From: a virus | Taxonomy: Duplodnaviria; Heunggongvirae; Uroviricota; Caudoviricetes | DNA length: 47,785 nt | Virus record (IMG/VR): IMGVR_UViG_2529292853_000006 | Reading direction: 5' to 3' (one strand) | Shown here: piece after piece, positions 20,074 to 21,048 of the stretch | Position numbering within the stretch: the stretch's first letter is position 1 | Layout of the letters: each line of letters opens with the position of its first letter | Position numbers and translations under genes: made by a program | Notes under the pieces: model-generated | Seen by the model: the letters and a program-made list of their open reading frames with translations, nothing else | The model's database searches: none | What the model was told of the DNA's origin: nothing

Positions 20074-20469
20074 CTAACCTCGCATGTCAAAGCCAGATTT
20101 CTGAAAATCTCTGTAGACTTCCGGATTGTTGAAGGCCGGAAATTTGGCTTTATGAGCTGCGGACTTTATCGCTTCGCAATAGGCTTTATCACCGTTACTG
20201 GTAGATATTTTTAACGCCGTGCCATCCTGAGAGAATTCCATATGCAACCTGCATTTTTTCCCTTTCCAGTTATGCGGCTCATCAAGTTTGGCATTAATTG
20301 CAGCTCTGATTCCCCGCGCTTGCGCCCCCCATTCATCCTGATCATCCCAGCGTCCTGAACTGCAACTACCTGTAGCAGTAGTTTTGTGGCAATCTGAAGG
20401 GTGTAAAGGTGTGCATCCCGCAACAAAACCGACCCAAAAAGTCAACATAACGATTTTCTTTAATCCCAC
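20074..20469 (-). CDS. moron outer-membrane lipoprotein, divergent TolA C-terminal-domain-like
   Basis: GTG start with GAGGAG SD; lipobox VAGC; C-terminus (KCRLHMEF ... KFPAFNNPEVYRDFQ) is paralogous to the next lipoprotein. Confidence 0.6.
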   Translation of the reverse strand: MGLKKIVMLTFWVGFVAGCTPLHPSDCHKTTATGSCSSGRWDDQDEWGAQARGIRAAINAKLDEPHNWKGKKCRLHMEFSQDGTALKISTSNGDKAYCEAIKSAAHKAKFPAFNNPEVYRDFQKSGFDMRG

Positions 20470-20619
20470 TTCTTGCTCCTCAATCCATTAAAATCTCAGC
20501 AATAGTAGTTGTTACGTCCGCCACTGGCTCAGAGCTGACTATCCGCTAAATTTAGCTCAGTGCCGTAGCTGTGTCAGAACAAACCTAAGCCGAAACCGTT
20601 TATTACAAAACAATAAATA

Positions 20620-21048
20620 TCAGGGTTTAAAATCCAGCACCCCATTTTGAAATACTTTATATACTTCCGGCGAAGGGGGGGCAGGTATATCAGCATTCTT
20701 TATCGCATTCATCGCTTCACGACATAAATCGAGGTCTCCACTTTCTCTTTTAACCTCCAGTAGAAGGCCATTCGGGGCCATATGCATTCTCAGTGTACAC
20801 TCTTTTCCTGAATACTTACTCGCATCCCCGAACTGTTTTTCGATGGCGCTCTTGATTTGATGGGCATACAGACGGATATCCTCACTAACATCAGAAGTAC
20901 GTTCAGATGAACTCACATACTGTGTCTCTATTGCTTTATCGGAGTAATATGATGTACGGTCATGATAATTTGTCGATACAGCATCAGTGCACCCGATAAT
21001 AATCCCACTAATAATCAACGTAAGAATTGATGCGCTACGAAAACCCAT
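20620..21048 (-). CDS. moron outer-membrane lipoprotein with TolA C-terminal domain (domain III)-like region
   Basis: ATG with GAGGA SD; lipobox IIGC; C-terminal 80 aa closely resembles E. coli TolA domain III as recalled, ending VLDFKP. Confidence 0.7.
   Translation of the reverse strand: MGFRSASILTLIISGIIIGCTDAVSTNYHDRTSYYSDKAIETQYVSSSERTSDVSEDIRLYAHQIKSAIEKQFGDASKYSGKECTLRMHMAPNGLLLEVKRESGDLDLCREAMNAIKNADIPAPPSPEVYKVFQNGVLDFKP

Follow-up and report, generated by a model that had tools for sequence, protein, structure and literature searches.

Two lipoproteins with the TolA domain III fold on a Rac-like lambdoid prophage, candidate decoys for TolA-dependent colicins and phages

Introduction

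Domain III of Escherichia coli TolA is a surface on which outside ligands dock by β-strand addition (PMC4339652; PMC7391070). Strand β3 (A415-K420) is the edge to which the g3p N1 domain of Ff phage, colicin N and the TolB N-terminus attach, while colicin A adds to β2 on the other face of the sheet, and a single proline at D418 or K420 is enough to abolish the binding of colicin N and g3p and to give a full tol phenotype (PMC4339652; PMC7391070). Group A colicins and filamentous phages of the Ff and If1 types, among them those used in phage display, have this domain as their common point of entry. Here we describe two neighbouring genes, called L1 and L2, which encode small predicted lipoproteins carrying this domain and which lie on a lambdoid prophage in a stretch of viral DNA of 47,785 nucleotides (IMG/VR record IMGVR_UViG_2529292853_000006); the whole stretch is referred to as the window.

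Small outer-membrane lipoproteins that act from the periplasmic side are known from several phages. Cor (phi80, N15, HK022) and Llp (T5) inactivate the receptor FhuA and block the entry of other phages and of colicins using the same route. For Ff phage, Boeke, Model and Zinder reportedly described in 1982 a superinfection immunity mediated by g3p, together with colicin tolerance. Levengood-Freyermuth et al. reportedly observed colicin tolerance in 1993 upon export of domain III alone. Cells that export TolA domain III (TolAIII) to the periplasm become leaky and are disturbed in their Tol functions, as described in two studies cited in PMC6195910 (Levengood-Freyermuth et al. 1993; Wan & Baneyx 1998).

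Results

Gene structure and export signals

Both genes are on the minus strand and were taken from the list of open reading frames (ORFs). L1 (20620..21048) starts with ATG and encodes a predicted lipoprotein of 142 amino acids, and L2 (20074..20469) starts with GTG and encodes one of 131. An earlier reading of the sequence (the original prediction) had pointed out the two ORFs, a Shine-Dalgarno (SD) sequence for each and lipoboxes with Thr at +2, and all of these were found. An SD-like GAGGA (21056..21052) stands 3 nt ahead of the ATG of L1, and a GAGGAG (20481..20476) 6 nt ahead of the GTG of L2. The RefSeq pipeline starts L2 7 codons downstream of this GTG, but the longer form is favoured because the orthologues on pO157 and on IncI plasmids have an ATG exactly at the position of the GTG in the window. 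The module formed by the two genes has a GC content of 0.39-0.46, against 0.47-0.52 for the flanking phage genes.

L1 begins with MGFR followed by a hydrophobic run and IIGC, so that residues 1-19 would form the signal peptide and Cys20 (20991..20989) the lipobox cysteine; L2 begins with MGLKK, a hydrophobic run and VAGC, with its lipobox cysteine at Cys19 (20415..20413). The sequences were inspected and checked by the rule for outer-membrane lipoproteins, [LVI][ASTVI][GAS]C without Asp at +2, and both proteins have such a lipobox. That L1 and L2 are lipoproteins is, judged from these motifs, near certain. Lipoproteins that have no Asp at +2 are sorted to the outer membrane, and the mature proteins should therefore reach it; we infer this localisation from the sorting rule. 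Between the lipobox and the domain, L1 has a disordered linker (about residues 21-53) rich in Ser, Thr, Tyr and Asp, and L2 a short one with a conserved additional cysteine pair, C27 and C36 (Cys-x8-Cys). TolA domain III follows at about residues 54-142 of L1 (20889..20623) and 44-131 of L2.

Assignment to TolA domain III

The Pfam family TolA_C (PF06519, gathering score 25 bits) recognises L1 with 82.6 bits (E 2.4e-23) and L2 with 54.6 bits (E 1.3e-14). Residues 55-142 of L1 align without a gap to residues 334-421 of E. coli TolA as contained in PDB sequences (E 5e-28), up to and including the LDFKP end, and the identity with the host domain is 59-60% over 88 residues by both Foldseek and BLAST; for L2 it is 34%. 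In the AlphaFold2 (AF2) models the domain has a confidence (pLDDT) of about 90 in both proteins. Residues 1-50 of L1 and 1-40 of L2 are below 50, as is expected for a signal peptide followed by a disordered linker. The predicted L1 domain superposes by Foldseek on 2x9a_B, the TolAIII chain of the If1-g3p complex, with a root-mean-square deviation (rmsd) of 0.6 Å over 88 columns (TM score 0.96), and that of L2 on 3qdp with an rmsd of 1.1 Å over 86 columns (TM score 0.92, 31% identity); the TolAIII crystal structures matched by the two models include complexes with g3p and with colicin A. The cysteine pair of the domain (C84 and C109 in L1 numbering) is invariant in 14 of 14 aligned sequences. 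It is near certain from sequence and model comparison that L1 and L2 are TolAIII-fold proteins. The original prediction had recognised TolA domain III, with its terminal DFKP, at the C-terminus of L1; Pfam, the gapless alignment and the AF2/Foldseek comparison all agree with this, and the profile and predicted-structure comparisons that it had suggested give a match for both proteins.

The assignment of the domain is already contained in public annotation, as RefSeq names both proteins after it. L1 is called "tolA: cell envelope integrity protein TolA" (e.g. WP_000506936.1 in SE11). Judged by their sequences, however, neither L1 nor L2 is a bona fide TolA, both being devoid of the N-terminal inner-membrane helix and of the long helical domain II. 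The NCBIfam TolA models have about 360-390 positions, of which L1 and L2 match the last 95 or so only. With NF007065 they score 107.8 and 53.7 bits, both under the cut-off of 213, and with TIGR02794 (cut-off 59.45) L1 formally passes at 75.6 whereas L2 fails at 47.2. The RefSeq name of L1 presumably arose because the TIGR02794 cut-off was passed on the C-terminal domain alone, and we regard it as an over-annotation. It makes carrier genomes appear to have two or more tolA genes and can mislead automated tolA calls. PHROG places L1 and L2 in phrog_5772, "unknown function".

L1 and L2 as separate lineages under selection

The original prediction took L2 for a diverged duplicate of L1. This does not hold: the pair is only 29% identical, and the two have separate neighbours in sequence space and a separate distribution. 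In BLAST searches with the C-terminal domain the nearest neighbours of L1 include long, true TolA proteins (55-60% identity), while those of L2 are all short, and the ones that were checked are lipoproteins with the same Cys-x8-Cys linker. An origin of the pair by tandem duplication is ruled out by these identities and neighbours, and L2, as far as its sequence tells, belongs to a separate, widely mobile lipoprotein clade with members on pO157, on IncI plasmids and on islands of Citrobacter, Enterobacter and Serratia. The ratio of nonsynonymous to synonymous divergence (dN/dS) is 0.33 for L1 against the STEC1589 allele (0.29 in the domain) and 0.12 for L2 against the pO157 copy (0.08 in the domain), at a synonymous divergence of 0.4-0.6 in both comparisons. 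These values indicate purifying selection on L1 and L2, and together with the distribution described below we consider it highly probable that both are functional, independently mobile accessory genes.

The docking surface

In strand β3, where TolA reads NAPLDFK, L1 reads NGVLDFK, with L417, D418, F419 and K420 identical, so that the strand ends VLDFKP in L1 as compared to PLDFKP in TolA; L2 has KSGFDMR and keeps only D418. In β2 the LLDIKPEGG of TolA is matched in L1 by LLEVKRESG, with conservative changes, and in L2 by ALKISTSNG. L1 thus appears, on the residues of its docking strands, well suited to bind the ligands of E. coli TolA. Two of the partners of domain III proposed in the original prediction were not upheld. 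CpoB was reported by Krachler et al. in 2010 to bind domain II of TolA. For Pal, a direct contact with TolAIII is disputed in a review of the Tol-Pal system (PMC7391070).

Distribution in genomes, plasmids and phages

Among 5426 complete E. coli genomes, 771 have the 1.4-kb L1-L2 module over at least 80% of its length, most at no less than 99% identity. L1 by itself is found in 888 genomes (16%), where it is essentially always chromosomal, with at least 99% identity in 782 and 80-90% in 97. L2 is more widespread (1269 genomes, 23%) and occupies 825 chromosomal and 525 plasmid places; 784 records show it at 99% identity or above, and the plasmid copies are about 88% identical among the matches listed. 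On pO157 the L2 copy has psiB, psiA and hok on its upstream side and toxB on its downstream side, and on plasmids of the IncI complex it lies between a nikB-type relaxase gene and trbC. For pESBL, a transfer-proficient IncI1 plasmid, the end of nikB is given as 73493 and the start of trbC as 73530 (PMC4288162). The L2-type gene of the IncI plasmids is therefore accessory, as pESBL has no gene at this position, and a core role in conjugation is ruled out for the same reason.

L2-type proteins of 78-89% identity occur in Citrobacter, Enterobacter, Klebsiella, Raoultella, Serratia and Shigella. The gene adjoins a WYL regulator and an ars operon near phage-type genes in Citrobacter, and a GmrSD_N and HEPN pair in Serratia; on a further contig it stands at the frayed edge of a degenerate prophage beside umuDC-like genes, and on another plasmid a family member is found near an ATPase and UvrD-helicase pair.

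In 79 viral contigs from IMG/VR, three arrangements were seen. The L1-L2 pair is present at 35 loci, at which Q types and endolysins differ and where it is always followed by an S21-type holin if the contig continues. At 23 loci an L1 variant of 70-73% identity is alone, with a holin 3.2-3.6 kb downstream in 7, and at 19 loci an L2-type gene is alone, with neither the Q nor the lysis genes of the window nearby. The lone L1 variant of STEC1589 comes after Q, a methylase gene and tRNA-Ile/Arg and before a nanS-p-type esterase gene, which is the position of stx in Stx phages. The two genes are thus present or absent, and mobile, independently of each other, an L1 variant occurring alone in the stx-type slot and L2-type genes alone on pO157, IncI plasmids and islands. 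Of the phages in the INPHARED collection only mEp460_ev081 has the L1-L2 module, and the block that it shares with the window (19606..21336) runs from the holin through L1. With the plasmids the window shares a smaller unit, namely the L2 ORF and its ribosome-binding site only (20072..20499). In the BFVD library of viral structures no significant match was obtained, so that the fold is essentially uncatalogued among viral proteins.

A wider family with the same architecture

When a profile made from L1, L2 and relatives was used to search 1.84 billion cluster representatives, 583 proteins matched with E ≤ 1e-3 and 238 of these with E ≤ 1e-10, and the arrangement of lipobox, linker and TolAIII is present in dozens of clusters at 50% identity. 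The best 150 profile matches include 95 of at most 170 amino acids. A lipobox was recognised by rule in 64 of these 95 short representatives, none with Asp at +2; 9 others have different signal-like N-termini and the rest are mostly fragments. Like L1 and L2 themselves, all of their allelic variants have a lipobox without Asp at +2, as do the copies on pO157 and on IncI plasmids and two lineages from Klebsiella plasmids (LLTAC|K and LITAC|S), and this recurrence across lineages argues for repeated selection for tethering to the outer membrane. The proteins with lipobox, linker and TolAIII thus make up a diverse and essentially unstudied family, two branches of which are carried in the window.

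Two Klebsiella plasmids carry members of this family close to bacteriocin genes. The 10-kb cloacin-type plasmid CP043367.1 has, at 5641..6374, a gene for a 123-residue TolAIII lipoprotein and one for a 121-residue protein with a TonB C-terminal domain (CTD). The two genes overlap by 4 nt, the TonB-CTD protein has a type I signal peptide, and the pair is divergent from the cloacin, immunity and lysis genes. It looks, from its sequence, like a two-gene module of a Tol tip plus a Ton tip. The module is absent from CloDF13, and genes of the plasmid are mentioned as annotations only (PMC10269471). On a Klebsiella IncF plasmid the same TolA lipoprotein gene follows those of a colicin-like tRNase, its immunity protein, exc1 and exc2.

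Transcription signals and prophage context

The promoter-like sites, the terminators, the spacer, the antiterminator gene and the lysis cassette described next are on the minus strand. About 30 nt upstream of the L1 start is a σ70 promoter-like site, TTGAGC-18-TATAAT (21078..21107), which agrees with the consensus in 10 of 12 positions. The sequence suggests it as a candidate promoter, active in the lysogen, of a unit of L1 and L2. An intrinsic terminator (19925..19948), formed by the hairpin AGCUCGC-UACG-GCGAGCU (19948..19931) and UUUUUAU, is located 125 nt past the L2 stop and about 100 nt ahead of the holin start. The spacer between L1 and L2 (20470..20619; 150 nt), which holds the SD of L2, contains no terminator-like hairpin (folding compared to shuffled sequence, z -0.33), and the two genes may therefore be co-transcribed. 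Of the terminators that the original prediction gave to each gene, only that after L2 was recovered, and it is the one clear terminator of the module. The simplest unit consists of the promoter-like site 21107..21078, L1, L2 and the terminator.

Further upstream, a consensus scan gave a candidate late promoter, AAGACA-18-TATAAT (21721..21692; whole element 21640..21721), and a hairpin at 21664..21645 (z -2.3) is a candidate for the terminator of the short transcript. If these sites are read as PR' and tR', as we propose by analogy with lambdoid phages, L1 and L2 would be within the late operon antiterminated by Q. A Q-type antiterminator gene (22092..22634; Pfam DUF1133 7e-107, Phage_antitermQ 7e-6) bounds the slot on the upstream side, where genes for YbcO and DUF1367 proteins are also found. 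Downstream the boundary is a phage-21-type lysis cassette (18649..19879; Pfam Phage_holin_2_1, Phage_lysozyme and Phage_lysis), consisting of a pinholin S21 (Phage_holin_2_1) with its real start at about 19822, a lysozyme (19110..19607; Phage_lysozyme) and Rz (18649..19125; Phage_lysis) with an embedded Rz1 at 18708..18893. The placement of the genes in the accessory slot between Q and S, as originally predicted, is hence correct, this being the interval between the DUF1133/Phage_antitermQ gene and the P21-type holin. A TrkH-family gene (trkG) is next downstream of Rz/Rz1, and recE and recT are located further along the window; taken together, these genes identify the element as a Rac-like lambdoid prophage whose late region is intact.

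Some other features of the region were noted. Directly upstream of the promoter-like site of L1 is a small-RNA-like element of the STnc100 family (21159..21345; Rfam RF02076, minus strand, full-length, 86.6 bits against a gathering score of 47), which is without the U-run at the 3' end of the family consensus and belongs to the block in common with mEp460_ev081. Within the late region of the STEC1589 prophage, pieces of this stretch are found 8 times; the element is a repeated feature of lambdoid late regions and may mark junctions at which accessory genes are swapped. A tRNA remnant just upstream of L1 was considered and rejected, ARAGORN finding none and Rfam giving STnc100 instead. A hairpin directly after the Q stop (21982..22014; dG -19.7, z -4.8), flanked by an A-run and, on the opposite side, by a U-run, looks by its sequence like a bidirectional terminator ahead of the candidate late promoter.

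At the other end of the lysis cassette, the TrkH-family potassium transporter gene (RefSeq trkG; 17054..18529, minus strand), directly after Rz and with a GC content of 0.33-0.41, is a second accessory gene, which only some of the related IMG/VR contigs have. Between trkG and the small terminase gene are a gene for a ParB_N-domain protein (16122..16916, minus strand) and, after it, one for a TAGT protein (TET-associated glycosyltransferase, Pfam, E 6e-35; 15197..16153, minus strand); these may be a phage DNA-modification pair, and no TET/JBP-like gene was seen between or beside them. A host-like block (25396..31652) with genes for a major facilitator superfamily transporter, ChaC, a LysR regulator, a DUF2254 membrane protein and a BCCT betaine/choline transporter separates the Q/nin-side genes from the early genes on the recE/recT side. 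The window also holds a short Arm-DNA-binding (integrase N-terminal) ORF at 41275..41919 and an IS91-family transposase gene at 42970..44064. The prophage appears to be rearranged or to have a large cargo insertion.

Discussion

A decoy for TolA ligands

We favour the reading that L1 and L2 are decoys for ligands of TolA, and would put its probability at roughly 0.45. They would be two independently acquired moron genes of a Rac-like lambdoid prophage, whose products would be exported, receive a lipid at the cysteine of the lipobox and be anchored in the outer membrane on its inner side, from which a flexible linker of about 25-35 residues would let TolA domain III hang into the periplasm. They would be part of the Q-dependent late operon and have a promoter-like site and a terminator of their own in addition, and for this reason are probably made both in lysogens and during lytic growth. 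Devoid of an inner-membrane anchor, of domain II and of a link to the TolQR motor, L1 and L2 would be unenergised competitors for ligands that dock on TolAIII by β-strand addition, that is, the g3p N1 domain of the filamentous phages Ff and If1 and the translocation domains (T-domains) of Tol-dependent klebicins and colicins (group A). The decoy would sit at the periplasmic face of the outer membrane, where T-domains of colicins and g3p emerge, and would capture these ligands before they reach the energised TolA of the host. Such capture would be unproductive since the decoy has no link to the proton-motive force, and the lysogen, or the host of a plasmid with such a gene, would become tolerant to bacteriocins and shut out phages that depend on TolA. 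Both the ligand binding and the protective phenotype are what we infer from the data above.

The strongest circumstantial support comes from the pair of TolAIII and TonB-CTD genes on the Klebsiella plasmid CP043367.1, which would cover import by the Tol as well as by the Ton route; protection from bacteriocins and phages fits such a pair better than a housekeeping role. The family members that lie beside defence-type genes also strengthen the idea, again circumstantially, as does the LDFK of β3 that L1 has in common with TolA. The engineered export of TolAIII to the periplasm is a laboratory precedent.

Several observations weigh against the decoy reading. The promoter call upstream of L1 is a consensus match only, in a region where the scan gave 11 sites with 7.6 expected. 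Strand β3 of L2 (GFDMRG) and most of its surface residues are unlike those of TolA, and on this sequence its ligand may be something else. One distant member of the family is in a core-like chromosomal context, which suggests that at least some members may do housekeeping work in the envelope. The defence models of PADLOC-DB 2.0 gave no match to the two proteins at E values up to 1. TolB contacts TolA on the same edge, so that a decoy could damage the Tol-Pal system of its own host, which would argue for low expression or for a different purpose. Finally, hosts of IncI plasmids are classically sensitive to phage If1, and any protection is therefore not absolute.

Alternative roles

The position of the genes between the candidate PR'/tR' and the holin would also suit an antagonist of Tol-Pal in the lytic cycle, although we consider this distinctly unlikely as the primary role. 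A TolAIII domain made late would titrate the N-terminus of TolB on TolB-Pal and block the mobilisation of Pal that TolA drives, and the outer membrane, thereby loosened, would hypervesiculate or leak; this could aid lysis or the release of virions, or the vesicles could soak up competing phages, an outcome to which we give the same low weight. The constancy with which an S21-type holin directly follows the pair in the 35 IMG/VR loci, whatever the type of Q or endolysin, is in line with such a role, as are the block shared with mEp460_ev081, which spans the holin through L1, and the conserved TolB-docking strand of L1. A lipoprotein decoy would be concentrated at the outer membrane, and it is there that TolB is bound to Pal with its N-terminus exposed (PMC7391070); cells with periplasmic TolAIII are leaky according to the studies cited in PMC6195910. 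However, L2-type genes are found on plasmids and chromosomal islands that have no lysis genes, lone L1 variants are about 3.3 kb away from the holin, and the prophage already has a full set of holin, endolysin and spanin. The promoter-like site and terminator of the unit resemble those of morons expressed in the lysogen, and the affinity of TolA for TolB is weak, with a Kd of about 40 µM as compared to about 1 µM for the colicin N T-domain and for g3p-N1 (PMC4339652). Roles as a decoy and in the lytic cycle are not exclusive.

The divergence of L2 in docking strand and surface raises another alternative, which we regard as unlikely, namely that the fold shared by TolAIII and TonB-CTD is a generic β-augmentation module used here to bind a different protein of the periplasm or outer membrane; the genes could then be morons for fitness or virulence, comparable to Bor or Lom, or could hinder entry by conjugation. 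The location of L2-type genes between relaxase and trbC in the IncI complex and beside exc1/exc2 in the Klebsiella plasmid is compatible with this, and so are the core-like locus of the distant member and the size and diversity of the family. It is, on the other hand, hard to explain without the ligands of TolA why L1 is about 60% identical to TolAIII with the LDFK of β3 unchanged; a role in conjugation is at odds with the empty position in the transfer-proficient IncI1 plasmid pESBL, and the data suggest no alternative partner. That L1 and L2 are merely decaying, functionless fragments of a captured tolA gene could be read from the RefSeq label of L1, simply "tolA", and from several truncated or frameshifted copies in the databases, but is hardly credible. 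The dN/dS values are well under 1, every lineage has gained a lipoprotein signal and a linker and keeps them, the ORFs are intact and at least 99% conserved in about 780 genomes, and both proteins are predicted to fold with high confidence. Pseudogene status is effectively refuted by the data on selection and conservation.

Possible significance

The domain itself is known, but the architecture, a predicted outer-membrane lipoprotein that carries TolAIII without a motor and is borne by mobile elements, is unstudied. No functional study of such proteins was found in the full-text literature, which leaves most subscription journals outside, so that an older report may have been missed; PMC2948877 concerns the chromosomal tolA. 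It is tempting to speculate, with rather less than even confidence, that mobile elements of the Enterobacterales repeatedly deploy a previously unrecognised protective class, consisting of unenergised copies of the tips of import motors. The class would comprise a TolAIII lipoprotein, sometimes accompanied by a secreted TonB CTD, on prophages, IncI and IncF plasmids, bacteriocin plasmids and defence islands, and would, on the same tentative footing, catch colicins as well as filamentous or Ton-dependent phages in the periplasm as they enter. In that case it would give a broad tolerance independent of immunity proteins and could explain part of the frequent multi-colicin resistance in natural isolates of E. 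coli. A decoy of this kind would be a cheap, broad-spectrum shield that explanations of colicin resistance by receptor mutation or immunity genes have missed, and would bear on bacteriocin and phage therapeutics, on competition in the gut and on the benefit that the host draws from prophages of the Stx and Rac types. Should L1 and L2 instead antagonise Tol-Pal, they would be a natural tool for tuning the stability of the outer membrane and the production of vesicles.

Comparison with known systems

Among known systems, L1 and L2 can be set beside domain III of E. coli TolA (1TOL, 1S62, 2X9A, 3QDP/3QDR), with which they have in common the Pfam family and the fold, in which helices flank a sheet of three strands and a disulfide is conserved. 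L1 and E. coli TolAIII also both end in the LDFKP strand that g3p, colicin N and TolB use. Unlike TolA, L1 and L2 have no transmembrane helix, no domain II and no coupling to TolQR, and their lipoprotein signal would tether the domain to the opposite, outer membrane. In this they can be compared to the engineered periplasmic TolAIII, which is likewise an isolated domain III in the periplasm uncoupled from the motor; the engineered proteins, however, are soluble, overproduced laboratory constructs, whereas L1 and L2 are natural, predicted to be lipid-anchored, carried by mobile elements and presumably made at levels that the host tolerates.

Cor and Llp resemble L1 and L2, as predicted here, in being small outer-membrane lipoproteins of phages, but do not mimic a component of the host import machinery. 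No sequence relation of L1 and L2 to Cor or Llp was seen, and PHROG keeps both in phrog_5772. The immunity conferred by g3p of Ff phage concerns the same step as that proposed for L1 and L2, the contact of g3p or colicin with TolAIII, with the roles reversed: there a ligand saturates the TolA of the host, and here a copy of TolA would saturate the incoming ligand. The lipoprotein of the Klebsiella plasmid CP043367.1 is mobile cargo like L1 and L2 and has the same architecture of lipobox (LLTAC), linker and a TolAIII domain ending in NAPLDFRP. It belongs to another lineage, is 39% identical to L1 and is paired with a TonB-CTD protein beside a bacteriocin operon.

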